Assembly: GCF_046119375.1 (NCBI RefSeq)
Contig: NW_027362762.1
Span: 667,058,001 to 667,122,000, forward strand
Origin: Phyllobates terribilis
Lineage: Eukaryota
Length of the DNA: 64,000 nt
Direction of reading: 5' to 3'
In this document: positions 1 to 60,619 of the stretch, in pieces
How the letters are laid out: each line of letters starts with the position of its first letter
Position numbering within the stretch: the stretch's first letter is position 1
Notes under the pieces: model-generated
The model's input: only the letters and a program-made list of their open reading frames with translations
Told to the model about the DNA's origin: nothing
Database searches by the model: none
Translations under genes and position numbers: made by a program

Positions 1-369
1 AGAACTGTGAGTAAAGGCCCTGGACTGCATCACTGACTCCGTGTCGTTACTGCTGCTGCCCTGCACCATCACCCCCATCCTCCGCATACACTGCCCTGAG
101 GCTATACTCCTCCCGTGGGGAGTTATGCTACGCTCTGCTGCACCCACAACACCAGCCTCAGCGGTCTGCCCTGGAGCGGCGGTTCACTCTGACCGCAATC
201 CACGGGTGGCGTAGTCGGACATTTAAACATCAAAACCACATAAATAGTTCCGCCACTGGTTTGACCGCCCTGAGCCACGGAACCGGGTCGCCGCCACGGA
301 TACTACAACCACCAGCATCCACCAAAAAGGGTCCGGCTCCGGGTGTCCCAAGGCCCAGGGGGCGCGTCA
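1..369 (+). mobile_element. Gypsy solo LTR, 3' part (cargo in hAT copy A)
   Basis: Ends GGGGCGCGTCA like the Gypsy LTR at 60848-61822, followed by GAAC (the 4-bp TSD deduced from copy C-right). Reverse complement of 58404-58772. Confidence 0.85.
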
Positions 370-820
370 GAACATTTTCATCACCTTTCACAATCACCAA
401 TGGGACAAGGCAGGGATGTTCTCTGTCCCCTCTCTTATACATCCTAGTGACGGAGCACCTGCTCTCATCAATTCGCCATAACCACAATATTAGGTGGATT
501 GAGGTGGGAGGCACCGAGTACAAGTGCTCTCTATTTGCTGATGATGTCCTAGTATATATCACTCAATCACATATATCCATCCATGCTGTTATGGCTGAAA
601 TAGATCACTTTGTTACATTGTCAAATTTTAAAATCAATGCAGCGAAGTCTGAGGCCCTCGATGTCTCCCTCCCCAAATCCATATAGGATTCCATCCAGTC
701 CAACTTTCCCTTTGCCTGGCCCTCACAGGGTATCAAATACTTAGGAATTCCTATTCATAGAGACCTCTCCCATCTATGTTATCTTAATTTTGGGCCCTTT
801 ATTGAACAACTCCATACAGA
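370..820 (+). pseudogene. L1/Tx1-type ORF2 reverse transcriptase fragment (cargo)
   Basis: Encodes NGTRQGCSLSPLLY and LFADDVLVY RT motifs and FKINAAKSE; same sequence as 7070-7505. Confidence 0.9.
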
Positions 821-891
821 CCACGGTTGGCAAGTTAGAACTGTAAGATTCACTACGTGAACCACTGGTGTTTTGTGGAAAAGCACATGTA

Positions 892-2255
892 CACTGTGTT
901 CCAAATTATTATGCAAAAAGTGTTTAGGAGTGATAAGGGAAGAATTTGTTTGTTTGTCAGTTAAACTCATTGATGGTGATGTGTGTCAGGGCTCTTTATA
1001 TCACTGTAAGCAATTGCAGACACCTGTGCTAATTAGTTTGGCAGGTGTGTCCAATGAAAGGCAAGACTACTTAAGAAGGCTGTCTCACATTATTAAGCAG
1101 CCTACATTTTCTGCCAAAATGGGAAAGAAAAAGGATGTGTCGGCTGCTGAGAAGCAACAAATTGTGGAGTGTTTAGGTCAAGGCATGACTACAATCAACA
1201 TTGTGCGATGATCAGGATGAAGTGTCTTGGCAATCAAGAAGTATGTAGCTGATTCACAGTACACACGTGTGCGTGCTGATAAGGGCAAATTGAGGACTCT
1301 TTCCTACAGGCAATTACGTCAGGTTGAAAGAGCAGCGGCAAAAAAGCCTTGTCAAAGCAGCAGATAAGTTTTTGAAGCTGCTGGTGCCTCCAACGTCCCC
1401 CGAACAACAAGATGCAGGGTCCTTCAGAGGTTTGCAGCTGTGCATACGCCATCCTGTCGACCTCCTCTATCCACTTCACACAAGCAGAAACGGCTCCAGT
1501 GGGCCAAACATTACATGAAGACTGATTTCAAAACTGTTTTGTTCACGGATGAGTGCCGTGCAGCGCTCGATGGTCCAGATGGATGGAGTGGAGGATGGCT
1601 GGTTGATGGACACCCCACGCAAACACGGCTACAGCGCCAACAAGGAGGAGGTGGAGTAATGTTTTGGGCTGGAATCATGGGGAGAGAGATTGTCGGCCCC
1701 TTTAGGATCCCTGAAGGCGCTAAAGATGAACTCCATAATGTATGTGGATTTTCTCAAACAGTACTTCCTGCCATGGTTCAAGAAGAAGAACCATGTATTT
1801 CACAGCAAGATCATTTTTTTGCATGATAATGCACCATCTCATGCTGCACATAAAACATCTGCATCTCTGGCTGATATGGGCATAAAAGGGGACAAACTTA
1901 TGGTGTGACCCCCATGCTCCCCTGACCTCTACCCCATTCAGAACCTTTGGAGCATCATTAAAAGGAGTGTCTATGATGGCGGGAGGCAGTTCACATCTAA
2001 GCAACAGCTCTGGGAGGGTATTCTGTCCTCATGCAAAACAATTGAAGCAGAAACCATCCAAAACCTGACAAATTCAATGGACGAGAGAGTTCAGAAGCTC
2101 CTTTCGAACAAGGGGTCCTATGTGAAAATGTAACATCACCTAGAATAAAGTTTTGAGTTGAAAACTGTTTGATTTCAGTTTCTAACAACCTGCTAATGCT
2201 TATAATTTTAAAAATGACCATTTTTTTGGTCTTTATTAAAATGAAAAGGTTGATC
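892..2255 (+). mobile_element. Tc1/mariner element (defective) nested in hAT copy A; transposase remnant 1119-2133
   Basis: TA then CACTGTGTTCCAAATTATTATGC terminal sequence; MGKKKDVSAAEK start; FTDEC, HDNAPSH and DLYPIQNLW motifs. Frameshifts present and right TIR missing. Confidence 0.9.
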
Positions 2256-2399
2256 GAAAAGTTTGGGGGATCTAAGAGTGTGGCAACCCAGTAGTCATGA
2301 TTACTTCAAATTCTGACAATATGAGGGTCATGCTGCAGGTAGTGCAGCAAGAAGGCACTTATGTGTCTTGCGCATCTCGGAGCCCCAAAATTATTTTCC

Positions 2400-2665
2400 G
2401 GGCTAGATGCAGCTAAAAATTATTATTAATTTTAAATCTGGTGAAGCTTTAGTATAGATGGCCTAATAGGATCAGTGCTGCACACTGCTACAAAGCCCAA
2501 ATTATTTTCCAGTCAAGATACAGATAAACATGATTAGTAATTTTAAATCTGGTGGAGCTTATTATAGATGGCCTAATAGAATCAGTGCTGCACACTGCTA
2601 CAAAGCCCAAATTATTTTCCAGCCAAGATACAGATAAACATGATTAGTAATTTGAAAGCTTAAAA
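2400..2665. repeat. ~110-bp hAT-internal tandem repeat, ~2.5 copies, downstream of the transposase
   Basis: Unit GATGGCCTAATAG..CACACTGCTACAAAGCCCAAATTATTTTCC..CAAGATACAGATAAAC repeated. Confidence 0.85.
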
Positions 2666-2701
2666 CGGTTGGTAGGGTGATTTTAACCAATCATCAAGCT
2701 T

Positions 2702-4133
2702 TTACTCTCCCCAGGATGACACAGGGGTAGAAAAGTCGTTTCGGATCCATGATTTGTTCATCTTTATGAACGTGAGTCTGTCTACATTATCAGTGGAGAG
2801 CCGCGTGCGCTTATCTGTCAGCACACCACCAGCAGCGCTGAACACACGTTCAGACAGAACGCTGGCTGCGGGGCATGACAAGATCTCCAAGGCGTAAGTG
2901 GCTAGCTCCGGCCATTTATCCAGATTGGAAGCCCAAAAAGAGCAAGGGTCCAGTGACACAGTCATGGCTTCAATGTTTACTTGGAGATACTCCTGTACCA
3001 TCGTCTCTAGGCGTTGACTATGTGTCAGACTTCTTGTCTCCTGTGGCCTTGCAAAGGATGGGCTAAAAAAGTGGTGAAATGATTCCGCAAAATTGATGTT
3101 ACCAGCAGATACTGTGGTTCTGTTATGGTTTGAGTGCTGAACACTTGACGGTCCCACGGTTGGCAAGTTGGAACTGTGAGATTCACTACGTGCAACACTG
3201 GTATTTTGTGGAAAAGCACATGTAAGATTCTGCAACAGTCTCTGCTGATACTCCTGCATGCGTGCATCTCTTTCTATGGCAGGAATAATTTCTGCAAATT
3301 TACTTTTGTACCGGGGATCTAACAGTGTGGCAACCCAGTAGTCAGGATTATTTCTAATTCTCACAATTCGAGGGTCATGTTGCAGGTAGTGCAGCAAGAA
3401 GGCACTCATGTGTCTTGCGCATCCAGGAGCACCAAGTCCCTGTTGTGTTGGTGGCGAGGTAACAATCATGCTTCCTTCCTCTGCCCTCTAGCCCCAACCT
3501 CGCACAACAGAAATGTGATCATGGTCTCCCTCATCTGATGAGTCTTCCATCAGTCGTCCTCCACTTCTTCCTGGGCTCCTGCACCTTCCTCACTAGTTTG
3601 GCTGCTACCATGCGCCCTGGTAAAACCATCTCCCCCACCCTCACATGCTTGCCGCCTTGGTGCTGCCGACCGTCTGGACCTTGCAGATGTTAGCCCTTCC
3701 GCATACAACTCCTCCTCCTCTACCTCCTCTTGTGCCACCACCTGACTCCGAATTCTGTTTAACATGTGCTCCAGCATGTAAATCACCAGAATAGTCATGC
3801 AGATAATGGCATCGTCAGCAATAAACATCTTCGTCGCCATTTCAAAACTGTGCAGAAGGGTGCATAGGTCCCTGATCTGAGACCACTCCTCCATCGTGAT
3901 TTGCCCCACCTCTGGATCTCGTTGGCCCAGGCTATACATCAGAATGTATTGCACCAGGGCTTGTCGGTGCTGCCACAGTCGCTGCAACATGTGCAGAGTT
4001 GAATTCCACCCGGTAGGCACATCGCATTTTAGCCAGTGAAGTGGCAGGCCCAACGGCTTCAGTAGAGATGTAAGTCGCTGAGCTGCGGGATGCGAACGGC
4101 GGAAGTGAGCACACAGCGACCGTGCCCTCTGTA
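2702..4133 (-). pseudogene. hAT transposase C-terminal half (copy A)
   Basis: ORFs 2702-3469 and 3550-4053: LKCDVPTGWNST, YWVATLLDPRYK, and dimerisation domain WPELATYALEILSCPAASVLSERVFS. Confidence 0.92.
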
Positions 4134-5218
4134 TGGAGTATGTATACAGTATGGAGGACTATGTGATGCCCATAATACTGTATGGAGGACTATGTGGTGC
4201 CCATAACAGTGTATGGAGGACTATATGGTGCCCATAACACTGTATGGAGGACTATGTGGTGCCCATAACACTGTGTGGAGAACTGTGTGGTGCCCATAAT
4301 ACTTTATGGAGGACAGTGTGGTGCCCATAATACTGTATGGTGGACTATGTGGTGCCAATAATACTGTATGGAGGACTATGTGGTGCACACTCTACTGTAT
4401 GGAGGACTATGTGGTGCCCATAATACTGTATGAAGGACTATGTGGTGCCCATAATACTGTATGGACAACTATGTGGTGCCTATAATACTGTATGGAGGAC
4501 TATGTGGTGCCCATAATACTGTATGGAGGACTATGTGATGCCCATAATACTGTATGGAGGACTATGTGATGCCCATAATACTGTATGAAGGACTATGTGG
4601 TGCCCATAACAGGGTATGGAGGACTATGTGGTGCCCATAACACTGTATGGAGTACTATGTGGTGCCCATAACACTGTATGTAGGACTGTGTGGTGCCCAT
4701 AATACTGTATGGAGGACTATGTGGTGCCCATAACAGTGTATGGAGGACTATATGGTGCCCATAACACTGTATGGAGTACTATGTGGTGCCCATAACACTG
4801 TATGGAGGACTGTGTGGTGCCCATAATACTGTATGGAGAACTATGTGGTGCCTATAACGCTGTATGGAGGCCTAAGTGGTGCCCATAACAGTACATGGAG
4901 GACTATGTGGTGCCCATAACAGTGTATGGAGGACTATGTGGTGCCAATAACACTGTATGGAGGACTATGTGGTGCCCATAACACTGTATGGAGGACTATG
5001 TGGTGACCATAATACTGTATGGAGAACTATGTGGTGCCTATAATACTGTATAGAGGCCTATGTGGTGCCTATAATACTGTATGGAGGACTATGTGATGCC
5101 CATAATATTGTATTGAGGACTATGTGGTGTCCATAACAGTGTATGGAGGACTATATGGTGCCCATAACACTGTATGGAGGACTATGTGGTACCCATAATA
5201 CTGTATGGAGGACTATAC
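4134..5218. repeat. 31-bp minisatellite, ~35 copies
   Basis: Unit GGACTATGTGGTGCCCATAATACTGTATGGA tandemly repeated. Confidence 0.97.
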
Positions 5219-5945
5219 TGTCTGGTCTCCACTGTGCACTGCGAGGATTCGCCGGTTTCTGAGCTATTGTAGAATTTAAAATAGGCTAGAATTATAACTC
5301 GTTTGAAGCCAGGAAAATGCCCGGGGGTTCGGGAGAACTATAGACCCATTTCTCTTTTGAACTGTGATGTTAAAATATTTTCAAAATGAATAGCTTCTGG
5401 GGTAAGTAAGGTGATACCTCACTTAGTGGCCCAGACCAGGTTGGATTTGTGACAGGACGGTAAAGCGAAGGATGGAACGAGATGGATGATAAATTTAATT
5501 ACGATAGCAGAGCTGTCCGGTAATCCTAGTGCACTCTTGTCCTTGTATGCCGAGACGGCCTTTGATCGGGTGCACTGGGGATACCTGGAGGAAGTTTTCA
5601 CAAAATTTGGTCTCTTGGGTTTTATTAGATCTGTAACTAGATCCTTGTTTTCCAATCCTAGGGCAGTGGTTTCATCTCCGGGTTCTATGTCCTCTAAGTT
5701 TAATATCACTAATGGAACCCTCCAGGGGTGCCCACTATCCCCAATTATTTTACATTGGAACCTTTGGCGGAGTCCATCCTTGTTAATCCAGATATTTCAG
5801 ACATAAAAGTAGGTGATTTGGATCATGTAATCGGACTTTATTCGGACAATGTTATTTTAACGTGCACAAATGCGGAAAAATCCCTCCAGGCCATTAACAG
5901 AAATTTGGTGAATCTTTCCGCTGTTTCATACTATAAACTTAACGG
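5219..5945 (+). pseudogene. L1 ORF2 RT fragment, left part (target of hAT copy B)
   Basis: LSLYAETAFDRVHW, NGTLQGCPLSP, YSDNV motifs; reading continues YYKLNG|SKAL across the hAT insertion. Confidence 0.88.
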
Positions 5946-6431
5946 TAGAGTTGAGCCACCCCCGTAGTGTTCGAGTTCGGTTCGTCGAACACCCGTATGT
6001 TCGTCGAACTGTTCGTTGAACACCTGCGAACACCGTTAAAACCAATGGCAGGCAAACAAAAACACATAGAAACACACAGAAAACACCTTCAAAGGTGTCC
6101 AAAAGCTGACAAACTGCTCAGAAGACACAACTAACACATGGAAAAGTGACAAGTACATATAGTCATGCGAAAAGAAAAGAGGAGGAGGAGTAAAAGGAGG
6201 GGGAGACACAGATATAGGCATGTCATGCCCTTCTAAAACCAAAAAAGTGCGAAGCTGACACGGCCAGTCCGTTCCTGCCCGTGCGACCTCCGTGTCGCCG
6301 GGTTTGTGCCAGAGCTGCGGTGGACCCTGACGGCCAGCCCCCCTCTCCCAATACTGGTGCCTGTCCGCTGGTGGGTCGAGCGAGCCCCCCTGCGGTTGAG
6401 GCAGGTCTAAGCTTTTTAATTTAAATTGTCT

Positions 6432-6699
6432 CTGTAATTTGAATGAGTACACTTTAAATCCTTTTACAAGAATCTCTGGAGGGCAAGTCTCATGCCAGCA
6501 GCCGCGTAATTCCAGCTCCAGTAGCGTCCACTAAAGCTGCTGCAGTTAAAAAGCTTTTATAAGGATCGAGCTTGGCGGTCCACCGCAAGGCGTCCCACTG
6601 CCAGTCCCAGCCCCTGTGCCTTGGGGTGCCTCCACGATGCTCTTCACTGAGTGTCCCGGGGGCCCGAAGCATTTCCTTTGAAAAAATTAAGTGTCCAAA
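6432..6699 (+). pseudogene. 18S rRNA fragment (530-loop/helix 18 region into V4) inside hAT copy B
   Basis: Colinear with eukaryotic 18S: CTGTAATT.GAATGAGT.CACTTTAAATCC...GGAGGGCAAGTCT..TGCCAGCAGCCGCG-TAATTCCAGCTCC...GCTGCAGTTAAAAAGCT...GATGCTCTT..CTGAGTGTCCC..GGGCCCGAAGC.TTT.CTTTGAAAAAATTA. Degenerate and partial. Confidence 0.92.
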
Positions 6700-6904
6700 C
6701 TACAGGTGGTGTAGCTTGCTTAACAGGTGGGATAATAAGCTGACTAGCAGACACTGCTACCACGTCCAAAGTATTTCCTGGGCTAGATGCAGTTAAAAAT
6801 TTGTAATTAGATCTACAGGCGGTGGCTACTCCGCTGACTAGCAGACACTGCTACTAGGCCCAAAGTATTGCCTGGGCTAGATGCAGTTAAAAATTTGTAA
6901 TTAG

Positions 6905-7660
6905 ATACTCTCGTTGGATGCTGAGAAAGCATTCCATAAAGTCTCCTGGCACGCCATATATTATTCTCTTAAAAAGCTTGGGGTAGGGGTCTAGGGGACC
7001 CTTTTATAGCCAGAATCATGGCCCTGTATCGCAATCCGTCAGCTAGGCTGAAGATAAATGGAACATTGTCATCACCTTTCATAATGACCAATGGGACAAG
7101 GCAGGGATGTCCTCTGTCCCCTCTCTTATACATCCTAGTGACGGAGCACCTGCTCTCATCAATTCGCCATAACCCCAATATTAGGTGGATTGAGGTGGGA
7201 GGCACCGAGTACAAGTGCTCTGCATTTGCTGATGATGTCTTAGTATATATCACTCAATCACATATATCCATCCCTACTGTTATGGCTGAAATAGATCACC
7301 TTGTTACATGGTCAAATTTTAAAATCAATGCAGCGAAGTCTGAGGCCCTCGATGTCTCCCTCCCCAAATCCATACAGGATTCCATCCAGTGCAACTTTCC
7401 CTTTGCCTGGCCCTCACAGGGTATCAAATACTTAGGAATTCGTATTCATAGAGACCTCTCCCGTCTATTTTATCTTAATTTTGGGCCCTTTATTGAACAA
7501 CTCCATAAAGATCTTACTTCTTGGATGGTGAAGGATTTTTCCTGGTTCGGCAGAATAAGTATACTAAAAATGAACGTCCTACCTAAACTCTTATACCTCT
7601 TCCAAACCATTCCCTTGGTAATTCCCTCAAATTTTTGGAAAAGACTACGCAGTAGCTTTT
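6905..7660 (+). pseudogene. L1 ORF2 RT fragment (cargo in hAT copy B, not interrupted by an LTR)
   Basis: LSLDAEKAFHKVSW, ORF 7018-7662 with QGCPLSPLLY, FADD, YLGI, GRISILKMNVLPKLLYLFQ. Confidence 0.92.
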
Positions 7661-7910
7661 AGTCTCCCCAGGATGACACAGGTGGGGCAGATGGTGGTTG
7701 TCCCAACCTGCTAGGCCGCATTGTAGCACAGTGAGCTTCGCACTGCAACTTATGCTTCATATCCATGTGACGGTTCATGCATGAAGTACTCAAACTATGT
7801 ATTTTTTGGCCTCTACTTAGCTTTTGGTGACAAATGTTACAGATAACACGAGTTGGGTCATCCTTAGCGATCTGAAAAAATGCACAGGCTATGCAAGGTT
7901 TAGAGCCCAT
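7659..7910 (-). pseudogene. Deletion-derived BED-finger-only hAT mini-ORF (83 aa)
   Basis: MGSKPC..CNICHQKLSRG..CMNRHMDMKH fused in frame to the transposase terminal PVSSWGD*. Confidence 0.7.
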
Positions 7911-8519
7911 GCGACTCTGCTACTAGCAATACTATCAAATGATTGGCTGGGTTAGATGCAGAGCATCTGGGTTTGGTTGAGGGTCCCCACAGTCTGCCTA
8001 GGCTAGATGCAGTTAAAAATTCTCATTAGATACACAGGCGGTGTAGCTTGCTTCGCAGCTGGGCTAATACGCCCTGTCAGGCAAAATGTATTTTTGGTCC
8101 CAGTTTTAAAAAATGAAAGCTGTCTTAAATTTCCACCCCTGTCCATTGGTAAGACATAGAACTGCAGTGCTGGCCCCCACCCTAAGAATTTTTATTAGCG
8201 TCGTAAACCCTCAGTGTAGAGCAGTTTCTAGCTCAAACTAGATTATTCCCTCCAAAATTCCCATTGTTTAAAAGCTTGTACAGTTAATGTAGAATTTAGT
8301 ACCGCACAGGACTGTCACTAACCGAAGGACCACATTTTTGGAATGCTCACATTTTCCTGGTTACAATGATATATTTTTCATAACTGGGATACCCCCAGAA
8401 ATCGAGGAATTGGTTTCTTAGCTTCAGAGCATCATAGAGAGGTCCTGTTTAATATCCATCTGCTTGAAAATTAGTGACGGCCAACATGATGTCTCCATCT
8501 TGGATGTGGGACCCCCCCC

Positions 8520-9255
8520 CCACACCAAGATATGAAATCTGAAGGTTTTTATGTTCTATGCAGCTGGGTGGTTTCACAAAACCGAGCCCCCTTGTGAGGT
8601 GAACAAAATGGGTGTTTCCTAATCGTTTGGCCCGTTAGTAAAAACCAGAACGGCCATTTTCCAAGTCATTCTTCTCAGGGACGTCAGACGCATGCCCACC
8701 ACGCTGCGTAGAAGAATCACCTCTAAATTCCGGGGAGCTGTCCCCCCCACAGAATCTGAGACCCTCACCTTGTGAAGCAGGTTTTGCTATTACTTATCCC
8801 TTTTATTTTAATAACTGTTTATGCATATATGTAAATTGTCTCTTTTGTAATATCTTGTATATATTTTGTAAACACTGCCCCCCTTTTGGGAGTAAATCCT
8901 TAATATTTACCAGTTTCGTTCTTCATGTCCTATGTCGAGCAAACACATTCCTCACCCGCTAATTCACGTTACCTACCAGGTACCTGATCCACCTGTTAAG
9001 CGATCGGTGGTGGCAGTATACCAGTATTTATGTGATATTGTGGTTTGAGGGTGGCTGGTCAGAGGTATATACGTTCCTGGAAGGAACTGGTGGTATATAT
9101 ACGTCCTGCCACATCACGTGCAGCAATAGTCGACATAAAATAGAGCAGCTGCATCCGTGCTTATCCTCGGTCAATACCGTGTTTGACCAGCAGGATAAGG
9201 GGGCGCCAGAGAGCTGCAAGGTCTGACCCAAAAGTGGGTGTCATTTTCGTGACAC
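8520..9255. mobile_element. Possible LTR-retroelement LTR/leader fragment (cargo in copy B)
   Basis: Absent from other hAT copies; AT-rich U3-like tract, TGGTGGCAG motif, ends ...CGTGACA. No coding support. Confidence 0.3.
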
Positions 9256-9689
9256 GCCCAAAGTATTGGTAGACTCTATACTAAATAAGGAAGGATTCAC
9301 TGACTGTGGTGGCCCCTCCGTGGGCCATGGCGATTGGTGGAGATTTGGTGGATGATTATAGGAGAAAGCTCCTTAATAGAGAAAGTTGGTGGATTTATAC
9401 TTTAAATACACGTGTACCAGCGGGTTTAAACATCAGACATGATTTGATGTATGAGATTATGAGTGATCATTTATAGATTATTATTATATGTATGTTCCCT
9501 TTTTCTTCTTTTCTTTTTGATTATTTACATTTATATGCATTGTTTCTATGCTATACGATTTTAACATGGTGCATGTGTTTAAATTTCTGATTAACTCAGC
9601 CTTGAACAGGTGCATAGCAGGACATGACATATAAATACCACTTCCTTGCTGTTTTTTTGCTATGCAATGATTAAGAACTCGTATATATA

Positions 9690-10245
9690 TTGTGCAGAAA
9701 GAAGGGTGAAAGTCCGCCCAGGCGGGAGGAAATTGGAGTTTCATAACACATATTTGAACTGGAGAGGTATTAGAGGCCTGCAATGGCCACAGGTACTAAT
9801 GGAGGTAATCAAGGCAGGGAGAGAGGCAAGAGGTCCGGTCATCTTAGTTATACAGGCCGGGGGAAATCACATAGCTTACCACAAGAGCGCATAACTAATG
9901 GCAATAATGAAACTAGACACTGAGCGCTTCAGAGAATTTTTCACAAAACTAACTATAGTATGGTCAGAGATTGTGCCGAGAACGGTATAGCAAGGTGCGT
10001 GAGACATCACGCCCATCGAACGGACAAGTCAGGTAATAAATATTCGGATGGCAAAATTTATAAGAGACAGAGGCCGTGTAGTGATACGACACCAACAAAT
10101 GGAAGGAGATAAAGCAGGCCTCATACGGCCCGATGGTGTTCACTTAATGGATATTGGACTGGACATATTCCTGTCAGGACTCCAGGACGGAGTGGAACAA
10201 GCGTTAAGAGTGATGGATGGGGGTCGGAGTCCTGCATACAAGTAA
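9690..10245 (+). pseudogene. SGNH-hydrolase ORF remnant, probably from a DIRS/Ngaro tyrosine-recombinase retrotransposon
   Basis: W-GIRGLQW, VILVIQAGGNH, IVWSEIVPR and RPDGVHL motifs in ORFs 9646-9894 and 10048-10245, with stops between them. Confidence 0.7.
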
Positions 10246-11083
10246 GCAGGATCCTCCGTGGCCTGGAAATAGAAAGGACATGTTGGAGAGTTACACTTGT
10301 TGGCCAACTTGCCGTTGTGTAGACTGGAGACACAGGGCATGCTGCAACAAGCTGAATTATTTTAGAAATAAAATGCATTTCTAATGGAATGAGTATAAAC
10401 AGTTAATAAAGCTGTGAACGATCCTCACCCATCCAGTTGTAAGAGTTACATGATTGTATTGTCAATAAAAGGGGGGCATTAGGGGGCTGAGCGTCTGGGT
10501 TTGGTTAGTGGTCCCCACAGTCTGCCTAGGCTAGATGCATTTAAAAATCATTATTAGATACACAGGCGGTGCAGCTTGCTTCGCAGCTGGGTTACTACGC
10601 TGACTAGCAGACACTGAAGCTTTTGAGCAGACCTCTGAGTAAACAGCTCTTCAGACTCAACCATCTGTGTTACCCCAAGCCATAGTGTATGTATTTTCTT
10701 ACGGTTAAAAGGGGGGGGGGGAGAACCAACCCACCTCTAATTGACGATGGCAACGTCACGTAAAACAAAGCAAGGGAACTCCAAAAAGAGTCTCCATTTT
10801 TTCCAAAAATTTGAGGCACAGACACCACTTAAGTGGCATCAATTGCCCCAGAGTTGCTTAAAACGGTTGGTTAGAATGAGTACCACAAAATTATTTTCCA
10901 GACAAGATGCAGCTAAAAATTATTAGTAATTTGCAAACTGGTAGTATAGATGGCATAATAGAATGAGTACCGCACACTGCTACAGGCCCAAAATTATTTT
11001 CCAGACAAGATGCAGCTAAAAATTATTAGTAATTTGAAAGCTTAAAATGGTTGGTGAGGTGATTTTACGAAATCCTCCAGCTT

Positions 11084-42884: not shown

Positions 42885-43084
42885 CCTACAGGTGGTGTAG
42901 CTTGCTTAACAGCTGGAATAATCCGCTGACTAGCAGACACTGCTACTAGGCACAAAGTATTTCCTGGGCTAGATGCAGTTAAAAATTTGTAATTAGATAC
43001 TCTCGTTGGATGCTGAGAAAGCATTCCATAGAGTCTCCTGGCACGCCATATATTATTCTCTTAAAAAGCTTGGGGTAGGGGTAC

Positions 43085-43857: not shown

Positions 43858-44019
43858 TCGAAGAGTGTGGGGGATCTAAGAGTGTGGCAACCCAGTAGTC
43901 AGGATTATTTCGAATTCTGACAATCTGAAGGTCATGTTGCAGGTAGTGCAGCAAGAAGGCACTCATGTGTCTTGCGCATCTATGAGCCCCAAAATTATTT
44001 TCCATGCTAGATGGAGCTA

Positions 44020-44480: not shown

Positions 44481-44524
44481 GCTTAAAATGGTTGGTGAGG
44501 TGATTTTAACAAATCATCAAGCTT

Positions 44525-48170: not shown

Positions 48171-48284
48171 TTTGGTGGTTAACTAATTGATAACTCTGGA
48201 GTTGTTTGCACAAAAAACAATGGATGGGAACCGAGCAGAGCTGAGTGGCCAAACCGTGGTATTAGCCCAAAAGTATTGGCTGGG

Positions 48285-48790
48285 TTAGATGCAGATAAAA
48301 ATGATTTTGAATTTGCAACCTGGTGGAGGTTAGTATAGATGGACTAATAGAACAAGTCCCACACACTGCTACAAGCCGAAATATTTTTTCAGAGCTAGAT
48401 GCAGATAAAAATTATATTGAATTTGCAACCTGGTGGAGGTTAGTATAGATGGACTAATAGAACAAGTCCCACACACTGCTACAAGCCGAAATATTTTTTC
48501 AGAGCTAGATGCAGATAAAAATTATATTGAATTTGCAACCTGGTGGAGGTTAGTATAGATGGACTAATAGAACAAGTCCCACACACTGCTACAAGCCGAA
48601 ATATTTTTTCAGAGCTACATGCAGATAAAAATTATTTTTAATTTGCAACCTGGTGGAGGTTAGTATAGATGGACTAATAGAACAAGTCCCACACACTGCT
48701 ACAAGCCGAAATATTTTTTCAGAGCTAGATGCAGATAAAAATTATATTGAACTTGCAACCTGGTGGAGGTTAGTATAGATGGACTAATAG
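48285..48790. repeat. 110-bp repeat, ~4.5 copies, upstream of the C-left transposase
   Basis: GATGGACTAATAGAAC at 48338, 48448 and onward. Confidence 0.93.
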
Positions 48791-50199: not shown

Positions 50200-52365
50200 C
50201 ATCATTCTATTAGTCCATCTATACTGACCTCCATCAGGTTGCAAATTAAAAATAATTTTTATCTGCATCTAGCTCTGAAAAAATATTTGGCCTTCTAGCA
50301 GTGTGTGGGACTTGTTCTATTAGTCCATCTATACTGACCTCCATCAGGTTGCAAATTAAAAATAATTTTTATCTGCATCTAGCTCTGAAAAAATATTTGG
50401 CCTTCTAGCAGTGTGTGGGACTTGTTCTATTAGTCCATCTATACTGACCTCCATCAGGTTGCAAATTGAATATAATTTTTTTCTGCATCTAGCTCTGAAA
50501 AAATATTTGGCCTTCTAGCAGTGTGTGGGACTTGTTCTATTAGTCCATCTATACTGACCTCCATCAGGTTGCAAATTAAAAATAATTTTTATCTGCATCT
50601 AGCTCTGAAAAAAATATTTGGCCTTCTAGCAGTGTGTGGGACTTTCTCTATTAGTCCATCTATACTGACCTCCATCAGGTTGCAAATTAAAAATAATTTT
50701 TATCTGCATCTAGCTCAGAAAAAATACTTGGCCTTCTAGCAGTGTGTGGGACTTTTTCTATTAGTCCATCTATACTGACCTCCATCAGGTTGCAAATTAA
50801 AAATAATTTTTATCTGCATCTAGCTCTGAAAAAATATTTGGCCTTCTAGCAGTGTGTGGGACTTGTTCTATTAGTCCATCTATACTGACCTCCATCAGGT
50901 TGCAAATTAAAAATAATTTTTATCTGCATCTAGCTCTGAAAAAAATATTTGGCCTTCTAGCAGTGTGTGGGACTTGTTCTATTAGTCAATCTATACTGAC
51001 CTCCATCAGGTTGCAAATTGAATATAATTTTTTCTGCATCTAGCTCTGAAAAAATATTTGGCCTTCTAGCAGTGTGTGGGACTTGTTCTATTAGTCCATC
51101 TATACTGACCTCCATCAGGTTGCAAATTGAATATAATTTTTTTCTGCATCTAGCTGTGAAAAAATATTTGACCTTCTAGCAGTGTGTGGGACTTGTTCTA
51201 TTAGTCCATCTATACTGACCTCCATCAGGTTGCAAATTAAAAATAATTTTTATCTGCATCTAGCTCTGAAAAAATATTTGGCCTTCTATCAGTGTGTGGG
51301 ACTTGTTCTATTAGTCCATCTATACTGACCTCCATCAGGTTGCAAATTGAATATAATTTTTTTCTGCATCTAGCTCTGAAAAAATATTTGGCCTTCTACC
51401 AGTGTGCGGGACTTGTTCTATTAGTCCATCTATACTGACCTCCATCAGGTTGCAAATTAAAAATAATTTTTATCTGCATCTAGCTCTGAAAAAATATTTG
51501 ACCTTCTAGCAGTGTGTGGGACTTGTTCTATTAGTCCATCTATACTGACCTCCATCAGGTTGCAAATTAAAAATAATTTTTATATGCATCTAGCTCTGAA
51601 AAAATATTTGGCCTTCTAGCAGTGTGTGGGACTTGTTCTGTTAGTCCATCTATCCTGACCTCCATCAGGTTGCAAATTGAATATAATTTTTTTCTGAATC
51701 TAGCTCTGAAAAAATATTTGGCCTTCTAGCAGTGTGTGGGACTTGTTCTATTAGTCCATCTATACTGACCTCCATCAGGTTGCAAATTAAAAATAATTTT
51801 TATCCGCATCTAGTTCTGAAAAAATATTTGGCCTTCTAGCAGTGTGTGGGACTTGTTCTATTAGTCCATCTATACTGACCTTCATCAGATTGCAAATTAA
51901 AAATAATTTTTATCTGCATCTAGCTCTGAAAAAATATTTGGCCTTCTAGCAGTGTGTTCGACTTGTTCTATTAGTCCATCTATACTGACCTCCATCAGGT
52001 TGCAAATTGAATATAATTTTTTTCTGCATATAGCTCTGAAAAAATATTTGACCTTCTAGCAGTGTGTAGGACTTGTTCTATTAGTCCATCTATACTGACC
52101 TCCATCAGGTTGCAAATTAAAAATAATTTTTATCTGCATCTAGCTCTGAAAAAATATTTGGGCTTCTAGCAGTGTGTGGGACTTGTTCTATTAGTCCATC
52201 TATACTGACCTCCATCAGGTTGCAAATTGAATATAATTTTTTTCTGCATCTAGCTCTGAAAAAATATTTGGCCTTCTAGCAGTGTGTGGGACTTGTTCTA
52301 TTAGTCCATCTATACTGACCTCCATCAGGTTGCAAATTGAATATAATTTTTTTCTGCATCTAACC
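50200..52365. repeat. 110-bp repeat expanded to 20 copies upstream of the C-right transposase
   Basis: GCAAATT(AAAAAT/GAATAT)AATTTTT recurs every ~110 bp from 50241 to 52332. Confidence 0.97.
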
Positions 52366-52478
52366 CAGACAATAGTTTTGGCCTAATACCACAGTTTGGC
52401 CACTCAGCTCTGCTCGGTTCCCATCCATTGTTTTTTTGTGCAAACAACTCCAGAGTTGTGAATTAGTTAACCACCAAA

Positions 52479-55400
52479 ATGAGTGGAAAAAGGCCTGCTG
52501 CTGGTGGACAGGGGAATAGGCGTGTTGGGAAGGGGAAAAAAGGTTGTGTCCGTGGGGTAGGTGTTAAAGCAACAGTAACATCTGCAGAAGAAAGACCATC
52601 TTCCAGCCAAACTAAAATGTCTACTTCTTTTAGCGGACAATGTGATAAGATCCCTTTCTTATGGCCACGCCAATCGCTACAAATTCCAGATGAGGCACAA
52701 AAACAGCAGGTGCTTCAACTGATATCAAGTGCTCCTTTAAGTGGGCTCTCCTCCACATCAACTTCAACATCACAAATACTCCAGTCCTCAGAGGTGTCAC
52801 CCCAATCGCACTTGCTTCCTCACAGCTCCCAAATCTCCAGCTGCCCGTCTGAGTATGAGGTAGAACAGATGGTTGAGTCTGCAGAGCTGTTTACTCATAC
52901 TATAGCCTGGGAATCAGAAGTCGGCTCCAGCGCTTCTGTGAATCCAGACGAGGAAATGATCTGCACTGATGCCCAGAATCTTTATGAGTCGGATCCAGGA
53001 CCAGACGCAGAAGGTTCTGACCATAATGTAGAGCCTCATTCCCAAACTGTAACTCCTGTTGGTGGAGACAATGAGGAAGACGATGATGAGACTCAAATAC
53101 CTGATTGGAGTGACAACTTTAGTTTTTTGTCAGGGCAGGAACAGGTTGGCTCTGAGGACGACGGGTGTGATAACACACAGGGTGATGATGATGAGGTTGG
53201 AGATCCCACTTACTGTCAACCCACAGTCAGCCAAGAGATGAGGTCAGCAGAGGAGGTGGAGGAGGATGCTAGTGACGACGAGGTCAGGTTGCGCCTTCCT
53301 GGACAGAGACGTAGTATTGGAAGCACGTCAACAACTGCATCCTCAAACACAACTCTGCCTCTGACCACAAGTCGTGGTGACTCTTCAGGTCGCATGGGTG
53401 CTAAGCCTTGCATAGCCTGGGCATTTTTTCAGATCGATAAAGATGACCCAACTCGTGTTATCTGTAACATTTGTCAACAAAAACTAAGTAGAGGCCAAAA
53501 AATACATAGTTTGAGTACTTCATGCATGAACCGGCACATGGACATGAAGCATAAGTTGCAGTGGGAAGCTCACTGTGCTACAATGCGGCCTAGCAGGCCG
53601 GGCCAACCTCCGTCTGCCCCATCTTGTGCATCTGCGGCCTCTTCATCCTCTGTGACTGGGGGGACAGCAGTCACACCTGTTTTGGGACGCAGACCTGCCA
53701 CATCTTTACCCACAACAGCCAGCGTGATTGGCAGGTCATCATTTTCTTTGGAGGTGGTAACACCAGCTGGTGTTGAGCGCTGTCCGACATCGATAGCACC
53801 ACCTTTGGATCAAGGCAACCTAACATGTCCGCCTGCATCTTCCTCACAGACCGGCAGTTTGCCGGGGACACCCTTATCAACCCCGTCTAAGCACAACAGC
53901 CAGCACTCGGTCCCTCAGATGTGGAGAAGTAAAAGACCATTTCCTCCTAGCCATGAGAAAGCTAAGAGGTTGAATTTCACCATCTGCAAGCTCTTGGCTA
54001 CAGAAATGCTGCCTTTCTGCCTGGTGGACACAGAGGATTTTCGAGACCTTATGTCCGTCGCAGTGCCTCAGTACCAGATGCCCAGTCGGCACTACTTCTC
54101 AAAGAAAGGTGTGCCTGCGCTCCACCAGCATGTCGCACACAACATCACCGCTTCTTTGAAAAACTCTGTGTGTGACAGGGTACATTTCACCACAGACACT
54201 TGGACGAGCAGGCATGGACAGGGGCGTTACATGTCGCTGACTGGGCACTGAGTAACTATGGTGACAGCAGGACAAGGGGCTCCTGTCCAAGTCTTGCCGT
54301 CCCCACGAGTTGTGCGTCAATCCTCTTTATCTCAAAGTTCCTCCACTGCTTCTGCCTACTCAACCACCTCTCGGTCCTCCACCTGCACCCAAAGCCTGTC
54401 TGGTCATGCCACAAGCTTTCTAACTGCGCAGAAGGGATCCTGCACACCTCCTTACTATGCTGGTAGTAGGGCTCAACATCATCAAGCGGTTTTTATTTTG
54501 AAATGTCTGGGAAATGTGAGTCACACAGCTGAGGAGTTGTGGTCAGCTCTGGAGAACCAGTGTCATGAATGGTTGTCTCCACTGGACCTGAAACCAGGGA
54601 AGGCCGTGTGCAACAATGCTGCAAACCTGGGTGCGGCCCTTCGCCGGGGCAATGTCACACACGTGCCTTGTATGGCTCACATGTTGAACCTGGTTGTCCA
54701 GCAATTTTTAGCCCACTATCCTGGACTAGATGGCCTTCTGCAGAGGGCACGGTTGCTGTGTGTTCACTTCCGCTGTTCGCATTCCGCAGCTCAGCAACTT
54801 ACATCTCTACAGAATTTGTTGGGCCTGCCACTTCACCGGCTAAAATGCGATGTGCCTTCCCGGTGGATTTCAACTCTGCACATGTTGCAGCGACTGTGGC
54901 AGCACCGACAAGCCCTGGTGCAATACGCTCTGACGTATAGCCTGGGCCAACGAGATCCAGAGGTGGGGCAAATCACACTGGAGGAGTGGTCTCAGATCAG
55001 GAACCTATGCACCCTTCTGCACAGTTTTGAAATGGCGACGAAGATGTTTAGTGCTGACGATGCCATTATCAGCATGACTATTCCGGTGATTTACATGCTG
55101 GAGCACATGTTAAACAGAATTCGGAGTCAGGTAGTGGCACAAGAGGAGGTGGAGGAAGTAGAGGAGGAGGAGTTGTATGCGGAAGGGCTAACATCTGCAA
55201 GGTCCAGACGGTCGGCAGCACCAAGGCGGCAGGCATGTGAGGGTGGGGGAGATGGTTTTACCAGGGCGCATGGTAGCAGCCAAACTAGTGAGGAAGGTGC
55301 AGGAGTCCAGGAAGAAGTGGAGGACGAACTGATGGAAGACTCATCAGATGAGGGAGACCTTGATCACATTTCTGTTGTGCGAGGTTGGGGGGAGAGGACA

Positions 55401-56180
55401 GAGGAAGGAAACATGATTGTTACCTCGCCACCAACACAACAGGGACTTGGTACTCCTGGATGCACAAGACACATGAGTGCCTTCTTGCTGCACTACCTGC
55501 AACATGACCCTCGAATTGTGAGAATTAGAAATAATCCTGACTACTGGGTTGCCACACTGTTAGATCTTCGGTACAAAAGTAAATTTGCAGAAATTATTCC
55601 TGCCATAGAAAGGGATGCACGCATGCAGGAGTATCAGCAGAGACTGTTGCAGAATCTTACATGTGCTTTTCCACAAAACACCAGTGGTGCACTTAGTGAA
55701 TCTCACAGTTCCAACTTGCCAACCGTGGGACCGTCGAGTGTTCAGCACTCAAACCGTAACAGAAACACAGTATCTGCTGGTAACATCAATTTTGCGGAAT
55801 CATTTCACCACTTTTTTAGCCCATCCTTTGCAAGGCCACAGGAGACAAGAAGTCTGACACATAGTCAACGCCTAGAGACGATGGTACAGGAGTATCTCCA
55901 AGTAAACATTGAAGCCATGACTGTGTCACTGGACCCTTGCTCTTTTTGGGCTTCCAATCTGGATAAATGGCCGGAGCTCGCCACTTACGCCTTGGAGATC
56001 TTGTCATGCCCCGCAGCCAGCGTTCTGTCTGAACGTGTGTTCAGCGCTGCTGGTGGTGTGCTGACAGATAAGCGCACGCGGCTCTCTACTGATAATGTAG
56101 ACAGACTCACGTTCATAAAGATGAACAAATCATGGATCCGAAACGACTTTTCTACCCCTGTGTCATCCTGGGGAGAGTAA
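52479..56180 (+). pseudogene. Near-complete 1233-codon hAT transposase with one nonsense codon (TGA 54249-54251) and a catalytic D>N change
   Basis: ORFs 52479-54251 and 54258-56180 are in the same frame. GHW became GH*; CDNAAN became CNNAAN; BED, TTDTWTS and SERVFS are present. Confidence 0.95.
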
Positions 56181-56517
56181 AAGCTTGATGATTGGTTAAA
56201 ATCACCTCACCAACCGTTTTAAGCTTTCAAATTACTAGTAATCATGTTTATCTGAATCTTGGCTGGAAAATAATTTGGGCTTTGTAGCAGTGTGCAGTAC
56301 TGATTCTATTAGGCCATCTATACTAAGCTCCACCAGATTTAAAATCAATAATAATTTTTAGCTGCATCTAGCCCGGAAAATAATTTTGGGGCTCCGAGAT
56401 GCGCAAGACACATAAATGCCTTCTTGCTGCACTACCTGCAACATGACCCTTAGATTGTCAGAATTCTAAGTAATTCTGACTACTGGGTTGCCACACTCTT
56501 AGATCCCCCACACTCTT

Positions 56518-57881
56518 CGATCAACCTTTTCATTTTAATAAAGAACAAAAAAATGGTCATTTTTGAATTTATAAAGATTAGAAGGTTATTAGAAACTGAA
56601 ATCAAACAGTTTTCAACTCAAAACTTTATTCTAGGTGATGTTACATTTGCACGTAGGACCCCTTGTTCGAAAGGAGCTTCTGAACTCTCTCGTCCATTGA
56701 ATTTGTCAGGTTTTGGATGGTTTCTGCTTCAATTGTTTTGCATGAGGACAGAATACCCTCCCAGAGCTGTTGCTTAGATGTGAACTGCCTCCCACCATCA
56801 TAGACACTCCTTTTGATGATGCTCCAGAGGTTCTGAATGGGGTAGAGGTCAGGGGAGCATGGGGGTCACACCATAAGTTTGTCCCCTTTTATGCCCATAT
56901 CAGCCAGAGATGCAGATGTGTTATGTGCAGCATGAGACGGTGCATTATCATGCATGAAAATGATGTTGCTGTGGAATACACGGTTCTTCTTCTTGAACCA
57001 TGGCAGGAAGTGCTGTTTGAGAAAATCCACATACATTATGGAGTTCATCTTTACCCCTTCAGGGATCCTAAAGGGGCCGACAATCTCTCTCCCCATGATT
57101 CCAGCCCAAAACATTACTCCACCTCCTCCTTGTTGGTGCTGTAGCCGTGTTTGCGTGGGGTGTCCATCAACCAGCCATCCTCCACTCCATCCATCTGGAC
57201 CATCGAGCGTTGCACGGCACTCATCCGTGAACAAAACAGTTTTGAAGTCAGTCTTCATGTACTGTTTGGCCCACTGGAGCCGTTTCTGCTTGTGTGCAGT
57301 GGATAGAGGAGGTTGACAGGATGGCATACGCACAGCTGCAAACCTCTGAAGGACCCTGCATCTTGTTGTTCGGGGGACGTTGGAGGCACCAGCAGCTTCA
57401 AAAACTTGTCTGCTGCTATGACAAGGCTTTTTTGCCGCTGCTCTTTTAACCTGACGTAATTGCCTGTAGGAAAGAGTCCTCAATTTGCCCTTATCAGCAC
57501 GCACACGTGTGTACTGTGAATCAGCTACATACTTCTTGATTGCCAAGACACTTCATCCTGATCATCGCACAATGTTGATTGTAATCATGCCTTGACCTAA
57601 ACACTCCACAATTTGTTGCTTCTCAGCAGCCGACACATCCTTTTTCTTTCCCATTTTGGCAGAAAATGTAGGCTGCTTAATAATGTGGGAACGCCTTCTT
57701 AAGTAGTCTTGCCTTTCATTGGACACACCTGCCAAACTAATTAGCACAGGTGTCTGCAATTGCTTACAGTGATATAAAGAGCCCTGACACACATCACCAT
57801 CAATGAGTTTAACTGACAAACAAACAAATTCTTCCCTTATCACTCCTAAACACTGTTTGCATAATAATTTGGAACACAGTG
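56518..57881 (-). mobile_element. Tc1 element (cargo in C-right)
   Basis: Reverse complement of 892-2255; ORF 56866-57546. Confidence 0.92.
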
Positions 57882-57949
57882 TACATGTGCTTTTCCACAA
57901 AACACCAGTGGTTCACGTAGTGAATCTTATAGTTCTAACTTGCCAACCG

Positions 57950-58403
57950 TGGTCTGTATGGAGTTGTTCAATAAAGGGCCCAAAATTAAGATAACATAGA
58001 CGGGAGAGGTCTCTATGAATAGGAATTCCTAAGTATTTGATACCCTGTGAGGGCCAGGCAAAGGGAAAGTTGGACTGGATGGAATCCTGTATGGATTTGG
58101 GGAGGGAGACATCGAGGGCCTCAGACTTCGCTGCATTGATTTTAAAATTTGACCATGTAACAAAGTGATCTATTTCAGCCATAACAGCAGGGATGGATAT
58201 ATGTGATTGAGTGATATATACTAGGACATCATCAGCAAATAGAGAGCACTTGTACTCGGTGCCTCCCACCTCAATCCACCTAATATTGGGGCTATGGCGA
58301 ATTGATGAGAGCAGGTGCTCCGTCACTAGGATGTATAAGAGAGGGGACAGAGCACATCCCTGCCTTGTCCCATTGGTGATTATGAAAGGTGATGAAAATG
58401 CTC
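57950..58403 (-). pseudogene. L1 RT fragment, downstream of the solo LTR (C-right)
   Basis: QGCALSPLLY, FADD and YLGI in ORF 57913-58512. Confidence 0.9.
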
Positions 58404-59617
58404 TGACGCGCCCCCTGGGCCTTGAGACACCCGGTGCCGGACCCTTTTTGGTGGATGCTGGTGGTTGTAGTCTCCGTGGCGGCGACCCGGTTCCGTGGCT
58501 CAGGGCGGTCAAACCAGTGGCGGAACTATTTTTGTGGTTTTGATGTTTAAATGTCCGACTACGCCACCCGTGGATTGCGGTCAGAGTGAACCGCCGCTGC
58601 AGGGCAGACCGCTGAGGCTGGTGTTGTGGGTGCAGCAGAGCGTAGTATAACTCCCCACGGGAGGAGTATAGCCTCAGGGTAGTGTATGCGGATGATAGGG
58701 GTGATGGTGCAGGGCAGCAGCAGTAACGACACGGAGTCAGTGATGCAGTCCAGGGCCTTTACTCACAGTTCTTATTATCCAGACCAATTCTGCAGGTAAC
58801 GGCTGCCCACGTCGTACTGTGCTCACCAGGTGAGGTGCTCAGACAACTCCCAGATAACTTTGGAGCGCTTCACAGGACCCCCTTTGTGTGTCCTTTGTCT
58901 GGCCTTTCTTACCAACCCTTCTGTCCAGCTGCCTCGGGCCTCCTCTTGGTAAACTTGGCGCCAGTTTCCCTGACCCTATGTGGTGCCTTCCTAGCGGGTG
59001 TAGCGAGGGGCTGCGCCACATAAAATGTCACAGCCTCCGGTTTCTAGCTGAGGGTCGGTTCCCGCCTCCACTAGTTTCGGGGACCGGTCTCCCCCTTTGG
59101 CCTGACCCCTCCACGCAGGTGGATTCGGGCGTGCGGTGGCGACTCGCCCGTCCGCACCCCTGGGATCCCTTCGTTCCTCGTTCCTGGAGCCTTCTCCGCT
59201 CCTCTTCCTTCCTTCTCCCTCTTCCAGGCCTAGACCTCTGTTACTAGGCCTGCCTCCGGAGCAGAGCTCATGCAGAGCCCCTGCTCCCTGTCACTTCTGC
59301 TCAGACTTCTCTGCACTGAAATAAGATGGTGCCCACCTTTTATACTCCCTTCTCAATGCACCCAGGAACTGCTTTCTCCATGCTCCTGCACTACAGGGTT
59401 CCCCTTCCTCAGTGTTCCCTCCCCCCACTCCAGCCAGGGAAAAATACTGTCGTGCCCATCTCAGGGGCATATTGGTCGCCCAGCCCCATGGCAATGTGGT
59501 GTAATGCATGCAGGTGTCGGGTACTGATCCACACTCCATCCTTACCTGAGAGTGAGATATCACACCTCTGGGTGAGGTGCAATACGTCTGTAGCAACCGA
59601 GCCCTCAGGGTGCTACA
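58404..59617 (-). mobile_element. Gypsy solo LTR, 1214 bp
   Basis: Minus-strand termini TGTAGC...GCGTCA; 4-bp TSD GAAC/GAGC (GAAC in copy A) splitting the L1 sequence ATGGAAC|ATT. Confidence 0.88.
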
Positions 59618-59780
59618 GTTCCATTTATCTTCAGCCTAGGTGATGTATTGCTATACAGGGCCGTGATTTTGGCTATAAAAGGGTCCCCTAGACCCCTACC
59701 CCAAGCTTTTTAAGAGAATAATATATGGCGTGCCAGGAGACTCTATGGAATGCTTTCTCAGCATCCAACGAGAGTATCTA
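59618..59780 (-). pseudogene. L1 RT fragment, upstream of the solo LTR (C-right)
   Basis: Reverse complement of 6905-7060 (LSLDAEKAF). Confidence 0.85.
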
Positions 59781-59888
59781 ATTACAAATTTTTAACTGCA
59801 TCTAGCCCAGGAAATACTTTGTGCCTAGTAGCAGTGTCTGCTAGTCAGCGGATTATCCCGGCTGTTAAGCAAGCTACACCACCTGTAG

Positions 59889-60156
59889 TTTGGACACTTA
59901 ATTTTTTCAAAGGAAATGCTTCGGGACCACGGGATACTCAGTGAAGAGCATCAGGAGGCACCCCAAGGCATAGGGGCTGGGACTGGCGGTAGGACACCTT
60001 GCGGTGGACAGCTGAGCTCGATCCTTATAAAAGGTTTTGAACTGCAGCAGCTTTAGTGGACGCTACTGGAGCTGGAATTACGCGGCTGCTGGCATGAGAC
60101 TTGCCCTCCAATAGATCCTTGTAAAAGGATTTAAAGTGTATTCATTCAAATTAGAG
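59889..60156 (-). pseudogene. 18S rRNA fragment in copy C-right
   Basis: Reverse complement of 6432-6699; retains GGATCTATTGGAGGGCAAG. Confidence 0.92.
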
Positions 60157-60619
60157 AGACAATTTAAATTAAAAAGCTTAGAGCTGCCTCCACCACAGGG
60201 GGGCTCGCTCGACCCACCAGCGGACAGGCACCAGTATTGGGAGAGGGGGGCTGGCCGTCAGGGTCCACCGCGGCTCTGGCACAAACCCGGCGACACGGAG
60301 GTGGCACGGGCAGGAGCGGACTGAACGTGTCGGCTTCTCACTTTTTGGATTTTTGAAGGGCATGACATGCCTATATCTGTGTCTCCCCCTCCTTTTACTC
60401 CTCCACCTCTTTTCTTTTCGCATGACTATATGTACTTGTCACTTTTACATGTGTTAGTTATGTCTTCTGAGCAGTTTGTCAGCTTTTGGACACCTTTGAA
60501 GGTGTTTTCTATGTGTTTCTATGTGTTTTTGTTTGCCTGCCATTGGTTTTAACAGTGTTCGACGAACCGAACCGAACTCGAACACTACGGGGGTGGCTCA
60601 ACACTAATAATAAATTGTT

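Follow-up and report, generated by a model that had tools for sequence, protein, structure and literature searches.

A very high-copy, long hAT transposon family of the frog Phyllobates terribilis with probable stepwise gain and loss of cargo

Introduction

Why do neighbouring copies of one DNA transposon carry different, seemingly stacked fragments of other mobile elements at the same internal place? The question is raised by a 64,000-nt stretch of the genome of the frog Phyllobates terribilis (assembly GCF_046119375.1, 10.6 Gb in 9,343 contigs), positions 667058001-667122000 of contig NW_027362762.1, hereafter called the window. A sequence-only reading of the window had proposed four sister copies of a hAT transposon (A, B, C-left and C-right), with cargo lodged between the transposase stop codon and an "18S module" at the 3′ end, and had taken them for a Pack-like lineage ferrying class I and class II fragments. 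We found them to be members of a family of long hAT elements with a very high copy number. Its 3′ region has very probably gained and lost cargo stepwise, mostly through ordinary insertions of mobile elements, and its subfamilies have become dispersed.

Structure and cargo of the element

The four copies were recovered by self-comparison of the window as related BED-type hAT elements whose transposases are 3.2-4.5% apart. None of the four has an intact transposase gene, and only B is complete. It spans 10,259 bp (5946-16204, minus strand) and, as had been stated, has both terminal inverted repeats (TIRs) and a perfect 8-bp target-site duplication (TSD), CTTAACGG, at 5938-5945 and 16205-16212. 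Its transposase gene (11084-14790, minus strand; zf-BED and Dimer_Tnp_hAT domains) contains an in-frame stop at 13379-13381. The full-length transposase of sister copies has 1,233 amino acids, with the same two domains and long low-complexity stretches, and matches Hermes (E=2e-18). Full open reading frames (ORFs) of this length were present in three of the 18 copies checked (L017, L019 and L020), all from the C clade described below. The catalytic roles of the hAT motif positions are presumed. Tandem units of 108-110 bp lie upstream of the transposase (14734-15281), and related units were found at 10883-11042 and in every copy.

The proposed cargo bay, between the transposase stop and the ribosomal DNA (rDNA) module at the 3′ end, was borne out. 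Counted from the 3′ TIR, B holds a piece of the 5′ external transcribed spacer (5′ETS) with 18S sequence, subterminal repeats, an L1 reverse transcriptase (RT) piece, a transposase scrap, a solo long terminal repeat (LTR) and a remnant with an SGNH-like end. The 18S part of the module is real (nt 559-837 of the rRNA at 6430-6699, plus strand; Rfam match, 87% identity to the host gene). The module as a whole is a join, in which this part is combined with a 5′ETS piece (6246-6412, plus strand) that corresponds to 410-574 nt upstream of the 18S start and is 83% identical to host rDNA. At 83-87% identity to the rDNA of this genome, the two pieces are host, non-transposon sequence with a parental copy elsewhere, and the rDNA piece is the only host-gene capture in the element.

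The L1 block of B (6907-7655, plus strand) is the remnant of a 5′-truncated insertion, and its RT frame is uninterrupted, as described earlier (6973-7662; RVT_1, E=2e-16). The adjoining 260 bp (7656-7915, minus strand), formerly read as a BED mini-ORF and counted as cargo, turned out to be a scrap of the element's own transposase in which the stop region is joined to the BED region. The "LTR-like segment" is a solo LTR (8075-9254; 1,180 bp, 5-bp TSD CGCCC), but it is not shared cargo: it is private to B and its segmental twins and was absent from all 13 dispersed B-type copies showing that junction. The last block (9255-10480, plus strand) has lost 2 kb with the recombinase region, a part that older copies keep. 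In the copies called H1 below, a transposase scrap accompanies a 3-4 kb piece in which a tyrosine-recombinase-like frame stands before an SGNH-like frame. A remnant is present, as proposed earlier; its SGNH label finds no match in Pfam or PDB, and draws on presumed motifs and on a tyrosine-recombinase match below the cut-off in longer copies (Phage_integrase, E=8e-4). Amphibian Ngaro elements have the frame order of the H1 piece, recombinase and then SGNH (PMC9210276), and the remnant is likely of Ngaro type.

The arrival of the blocks can be followed in copies elsewhere in the genome. H0 copies hold the rDNA module only, H1 copies also have a scrap of their own transposase and the Ngaro-like piece, and F copies have the L1 in addition. 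The L1 site is empty and intact in H0 copies and filled in F copies, where a longer L1 (2.2 kb) has a poly-A end and is flanked by a duplication of about 16 bp of the hAT subterminal repeat. The solo LTR of C-type copies duplicates 4 bp of the L1. The Tc1 of the cargo lies at a TA of the hAT's own coding sequence; its right TIR and about 89 bp of the scrap have been deleted. Since their target sites are in the hAT or in its cargo, the L1, LTR and Tc1 were inserted inside the element, and on these marks most of the cargo reads as ordinary nested insertion and not as Pack-type capture.

If capture of the Pack type were responsible, each block would have been copied from genomic DNA already holding old element fragments, a process proposed for hobo_AC of the lizard Anolis carolinensis (PMC3014272). 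The rDNA join, the Ngaro-like piece and the transposase scraps have no TSD and need template switching or deletion, which agrees with such a process. It is refuted for L1, LTR and Tc1 by the TSDs, the poly-A and the TA target, and as the origin of all blocks we regard it as improbable. Compared with Pack-TIRs as defined in PMC8277862, the family carries host sequence and is multicopy with distinct TSDs, and a template-switch origin is not found for the L1, LTR and Tc1. The earlier term "Pack-like" hence suits the rDNA piece and not these three. Ordinary insertion into the bay would have been tolerated because the sequence between stop codon and subterminal repeats would be neither coding nor bound by the transposase for end recognition. 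The scraps and replacements may have arisen by template switching or recombination among the abundant copies.

Dispersal through the genome

Dispersal was followed in the 40 best matches to the 3′ end of B, which are ranked by likeness to B and do not give genome-wide proportions. They were typed as 17 B (copy B and both of its segmental twins included, as well as one deleted copy that is ambiguous), 10 D (Tc1, no LTR), 7 C (Tc1 and LTR), 4 inverted copies and 2 deletion derivatives. In the inverted subfamily (L005, L007, L008, L025, L163, L186 and L201) the middle of the element including the transposase is inverted and the 18S piece is gone; the TSD was 8/8 in all four copies tested. For the L1/LTR junction and for the L1/scrap junction, the best 40 matches were each full length, about 98% identical and located on many contigs.

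TSDs were tested in B, D, C and inverted types. Among 28 copies with paired ends, the TSD matched at 8/8 bases in 18 and at 7/8 in 4. On inspection L020 and L028 were also 8/8, and the paired end of L039 belonged to a nested element, which brings the testable copies with a match of 7/8 or better to 24 of 27. C-type copies on other contigs have TSDs of their own (8/8 in L018, L019, L036 and L040; 7/8 in L037). All 37 left-flank 8-mers listed are different; 33 of them have T at position 2 and 28 have A at position 7. The 8-bp TSD, the short imperfect TIRs (about 11 bp, TAGWGTTGAGC / TAGAGATGAGC) and the BED finger, DDE core and dimerisation domain assign the family to the hAT superfamily. The cargo types represent dispersed subfamilies whose copies have flanks and TSDs of their own, and loaded units of more than 10 kb have transposed; copy B had been thought to indicate this, and the dispersed copies with their own TSDs confirm it. 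Because of these TSDs and flanks, a stack with shared outer flanks or confined to this locus is excluded.

The window belongs to a 140-160 kb segmental duplication with at least three units (about 666.76-667.12 Mb of its contig), and twins of B and C-right, 99-100% identical, lie about 140 and 300 kb upstream; although the region is triplicated, an origin of the shared stack by local duplication or gene conversion between neighbours, without transposition, is dismissed as extremely improbable, A and C-right being 3.2% apart with different flanks and C-type copies elsewhere having unique TSDs.

The C type is also common to related organisms. Sequencing runs of three other organisms (coded B, C and D, independently of the copy types) hold about half the words of a C-type stretch and cover all of its 30 bins. 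A single contig of organism D, 2,777 nt long, runs through scrap, L1, LTR and 18S, and organisms B and C cover the stretch piecewise. One RNA run of another organism (code F) gave a single matching read and is uninformative for P. terribilis.

Order of cargo gain and loss

It had been suggested that the order of acquisition could be reconstructed and that a transposase tree should carry the gains and losses. Both expectations held: the order can be derived from empty and filled sites together with a tree of 41 copies, and the clades of this tree follow the cargo types. Support was 1.0 for F+B+D+C, 1.0 for D+C and 0.999 for core C. Mean divergence within types was 5.4% in H0, 4.0% in B, 3.5% in D and 1.3% in core C, and identity of the 18S piece to host rDNA went from 87.6% (H0) down to 84.1% (C).

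Based on the empty-site junctions and the tree, the likely order is capture of rDNA, then the Ngaro-like piece, then L1, then deletions giving the B type, then replacement by Tc1 giving the D type, and last the solo LTR of the C type, which would be the youngest. The B type may have arisen from F by two deletions. The D type keeps the left part of the L1, and the rest of the B cargo was probably replaced by the Tc1-bearing 3′ end of a dead copy, joined to an intact transposase. The C type would be D with an LTR element later reduced to a solo LTR. The order given previously (18S, L1, then LTR and Tc1) was right in placing 18S before L1, as H0 and F copies indicate; it lacked the Ngaro-like step before L1, and Tc1 preceded the LTR. 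A linear, purely additive stack was considered and ruled out, since cargo was lost and swapped as well, the Tc1 type having replaced the cargo of B.

Several observations count against this reconstruction and against the stepwise model in general. The older types H0, H1 and F were found through the flanks of Tx1 insertions (see below) and form a biased sample. Five of 46 copies were left out of the tree for short alignments, the root was placed by choice on an H0 copy with polarity taken from empty sites, divergence and rDNA identity, and the base of the tree (H1 and the inverted type) and the B group are weakly supported. C-right carries only 13 of 23 diagnostic C-lineage alleles and is either an early branch or a mosaic. 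L038, a member of the C clade, has a bay nearly emptied by later deletion, so an empty bay is not always ancestral. Three copies failed the TSD test (L006 6/8, L017 5/8, L035 3/8), and an rDNA-free autonomous ancestor of the family was not found.

Copy number and nesting

Abundance was estimated from 40 evenly spaced 10-kb stretches (400 kb) on 12 large contigs, a sample that leaves out C6 and the small contigs. Family sequence was present in 13 of the 40 stretches and covered 14.4% of the sampled DNA (bootstrap 6.9-23.6%), or 9.1% if only the hAT's own parts and the rDNA piece are counted. The 14 element ends observed correspond to about 185,000 copies (Poisson interval 101,000-310,000, which is too narrow since ends cluster), and the family therefore numbers roughly on the order of 10^5 copies.

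At this density, about 17 copies per Mb, 6-7 nested family copies are predicted in 39 elements of 10 kb. About as many were seen (in L009, L010, L013, L021 and L026, plus three short non-autonomous ones). Since the nesting matches the expectation from density, no special mechanism of targeted self-insertion is needed. The non-autonomous copies represent a family of 3.4-6.1 kb elements with the same TIRs and long internal inverted repeats, and with no rDNA and no transposase. They are nested at L028:13152-16550 and in L039 and L018 (oriented positions 3820-9009 and 8314-14405), each with a perfect 8-bp TSD.

Probable Tx1-clade elements in the 18S piece

The captured rDNA is itself a target. Three of the 40 typed copies hold inserts of 7-9 kb or longer at an identical place in the 18S piece. 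The inserts have two ORFs and an A-rich 3′ end, and encode an Exo_endo_phos endonuclease, RVT_1 and a ZCCHC3-type ORF1. Domain content and site specificity suggest that they belong to the Tx1 clade. They form two families, 70-78% alike, both at one 18S site. The target lies at about 6506-6510 in B, near nt 640 of the 18S rRNA, and is empty in all window copies retaining it.

Searches with the two 3′ ends were evaluated on 30 of 40 and 30 of 41 matches fetched (the first search gave 940 candidates). Location at the same nucleotide was observed in 30/30 and 24/30 of these best matches, so that one sequence makes up more than 20% of the flanks, the mark of target specificity used in PMC4494074. 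The hosts come from six cargo types (H0, H1, F, B, D and C), and in the star-like tree of 21 inserts these types are intermingled. This points to independent insertions, which likely took place after the hAT copies had spread. None of the 60 fetched matches lay in true rDNA, as tested indirectly through flanks, with no direct search for rDNA junctions. Five distant relatives (L138-L142, 71-74% alike) occupy a similar motif elsewhere, four of them at one site in another repeat; the flanks of three match the transposase of another BED-hAT (E 1e-11 to 4e-5), with the site upstream of the transposase. These two observations suggest that a Tx1 lineage specialised on hAT elements likely found a matching motif in the captured 18S piece. 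Whether the 18S piece became a new, dispersed target colonised by such a lineage (at least two families, probably about 1000 insertions) with rDNA spared seems to us evenly balanced.

The elements might instead be true rDNA specialists for which the captured piece is a decoy. Their site is in a conserved 18S stretch that is nearly identical in host rDNA, and one match (L133) has only a short 18S-like flank, with a host-type base. The lack of rDNA locations among the 60 matches and the relatives beside another BED-hAT argue against this, and we consider it rather unlikely. Still less probable, to a degree that makes it very unlikely, is a single old insertion in the 18S piece that the hAT amplified as an 18-kb unit. 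The Tx1 junctions are nearly identical in all copies, and a loaded copy of 18,069 bp (L004) has a 7/8 TSD, as this account would have it. The hosts, however, fall into six types and differ by up to about 5%, yet the 3′ ends of their Tx1 inserts are 98-99% alike; one site is used by two families with a likeness of only 70-78%, and the Tx1 tree does not follow host type. A single amplified insertion is refuted as the sole cause; some co-transposition may have occurred.

Four H0 copies (L151, L152, L153 and L156) contain inserts of 1.7-8 kb in the 3′ region of the transposase, all at one position (about nt 450 from the end). Either a second preferred site or an old insertion common to these copies may account for this.

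Other features of the window

Copy A (1-4131, minus strand) is of the C type and has lost its 5′ half at a 31-bp satellite (4144-5216). Its 3′ TIR lies 1.9 kb left of the window, within the Tc1 cargo of a fifth, LTR-less copy (L162/L001). The same cargo holds a 6.6-kb LTR retrotransposon with a 1,110-amino-acid open frame (L001:495-7089). Inside the window, A consists of the right part of the solo LTR followed by the TSD GAAC (1-369), the L1 RT piece cut at the scrap junction (370-820, plus strand), the Tc1 lacking its right TIR (892-2262, plus strand) between transposase scraps at 821-891 and 2266-2388, and the 3′ part of the transposase gene (2661-4131, minus strand).

C-right (49347-60606, plus strand), also of the C type, has an in-frame transposase stop at 54249-54251 and a 3′ TIR ending at 60606. 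It lacks the last 38 bp or so including the 5′ TIR, and is joined head to head with C-left through a 10-bp filler. Its cargo, all on the minus strand, comprises the Tc1 (56510-57881), the solo LTR (58404-59617; 1,214 bp), the 18S piece (59889-60158) and the 5′ETS piece (60176-60337). The earlier description of A and C-right proved accurate: the L1 is split by the solo LTR (TSD GAAC/GAAC in the A type and GAAC/GAGC in C-right), a duplicated transposase scrap carries the Tc1, and the two copies have common breakpoints, scattered differences and different flanks. The solo LTR is 74% identical over 240 bp to the LTR of a Gypsy-type element at 60846-64000, in which gag with a zinc knuckle and a protease were recognised.

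C-left (42738-49336, minus strand) lacks both ends and has a frameshifted transposase. It had been described as the same stack with a deletion. The deletion from L1 to mid-Tc1 (at 43082/43083) is there, and it starts before the LTR site, so the presence of an LTR is not visible. C-left probably never had the LTR, as it carries 1 of the 23 C-lineage alleles and groups with LTR-less Tc1 copies; B shares 20 of the alternative alleles, most of which are therefore ancestral. Beside its broken end, at 37388-42726, are nested inverted repeats and tandem units of 121, 159 and 200 bp.

An L1 RT fragment (5218-5945; RVT_1) lies directly left of B, which was probably inserted into it. A separate Tc1 with a Sleeping Beauty-type helix-turn-helix domain is located at 17588-18503; blastn within the window gave no match between it and the cargo Tc1. 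The 31-bp satellite at the break of copy A and a 28-bp satellite at 18895-21939 are about 69% alike. Short plus-strand frames at 27401-28238 read like exons of what we take to be a MAST-type protein kinase.

Discussion

The nearest precedent is hobo_AC of Anolis carolinensis, an autonomous element of 9-15 kb with about 290 copies and a cargo of class I and II fragments (PMC3014272). The frog family is similar in its short TIRs starting with TAG, in its 8-bp TSD with T at position 2 and A at position 7 (as in the non-autonomous families of hobo_AC), and in its structural lineages, recombination between copies and a history that can be read from embedded fragments. The likeness is one of architecture. 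In contrast to hobo_AC, the cargo of which was attributed to capture of old genomic DNA, the frog family has on the order of 10^5 copies, and its cargo mostly bears insertion marks. It also has rDNA cargo and a site-specific passenger, neither of which is mentioned for hobo_AC in the accessible text of PMC3014272.

Multicopy Pack-TIRs were reported from animal reference genomes in only four cases, all small and non-autonomous, among them Pack-hAT-N8_XT with a 291-bp untranslated region in three copies (PMC8277862). The frog family likewise is a frog hAT that has carried host-gene sequence to several sites with distinct TSDs. Unlike Pack-hAT-N8_XT, it has an autonomous carrier, rDNA as the host piece and a cargo made up mostly of mobile-element DNA. 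Preferred sites of Tx1-clade non-LTR elements within DNA transposons have been described for Tx1L in Tx1D of Xenopus laevis and for Tx1-Mar in Mariner-N4_AMi (PMC4494074), and the passengers of the frog family appear to be of the same kind. Here, unlike in Tx1L/Tx1D, an autonomous hAT serves as host and captured 18S rDNA as target. No Tx1 element targeting 18S-derived sequence was found in the literature searched, a scope outside which lie subscription journals, Repbase and supplements. The family itself may already be included in Repbase or in the supplementary repeat libraries of frog genome papers.

The transposase resembles those of the Hermes/Ac family in its BED finger, catalytic motifs and C-terminal dimerisation domain. 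It differs from Hermes (612 amino acids) in its 1,233 amino acids and extended low-complexity regions. Elements of the family measure 9-13 kb, 3-4 times the length of typical hATs of 2-3 kb (sizes of the latter from PMC3014272), and DNA transposition is reported to drop above about 6 kb of cargo (PMC6431247). Despite this limit the family numbers about 10^5 copies, which occupy an estimated 7-24% of a giant genome, and the youngest and most loaded subfamily, C, keeps intact transposase genes. Three traits of the family exceed the precedents: its scale, its rDNA cargo and the landing pad derived from rDNA.

Set in order, the seven structural types form a natural archive of cargo gain, loss and swapping. 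In the repeat annotation of such genomes, the L1, Tc1, LTR and 18S pieces that travel with the hAT would pass for separate bursts, and, if our account is true, the apparent copy numbers of L1, Tc1, LTR and rDNA sequences in this genome would be inflated. How target-specific retrotransposons come upon new targets could be tested with the Tx1 site. A family that makes up about a tenth of a 10.6-Gb genome would, if the account holds, be a leading driver of its size.

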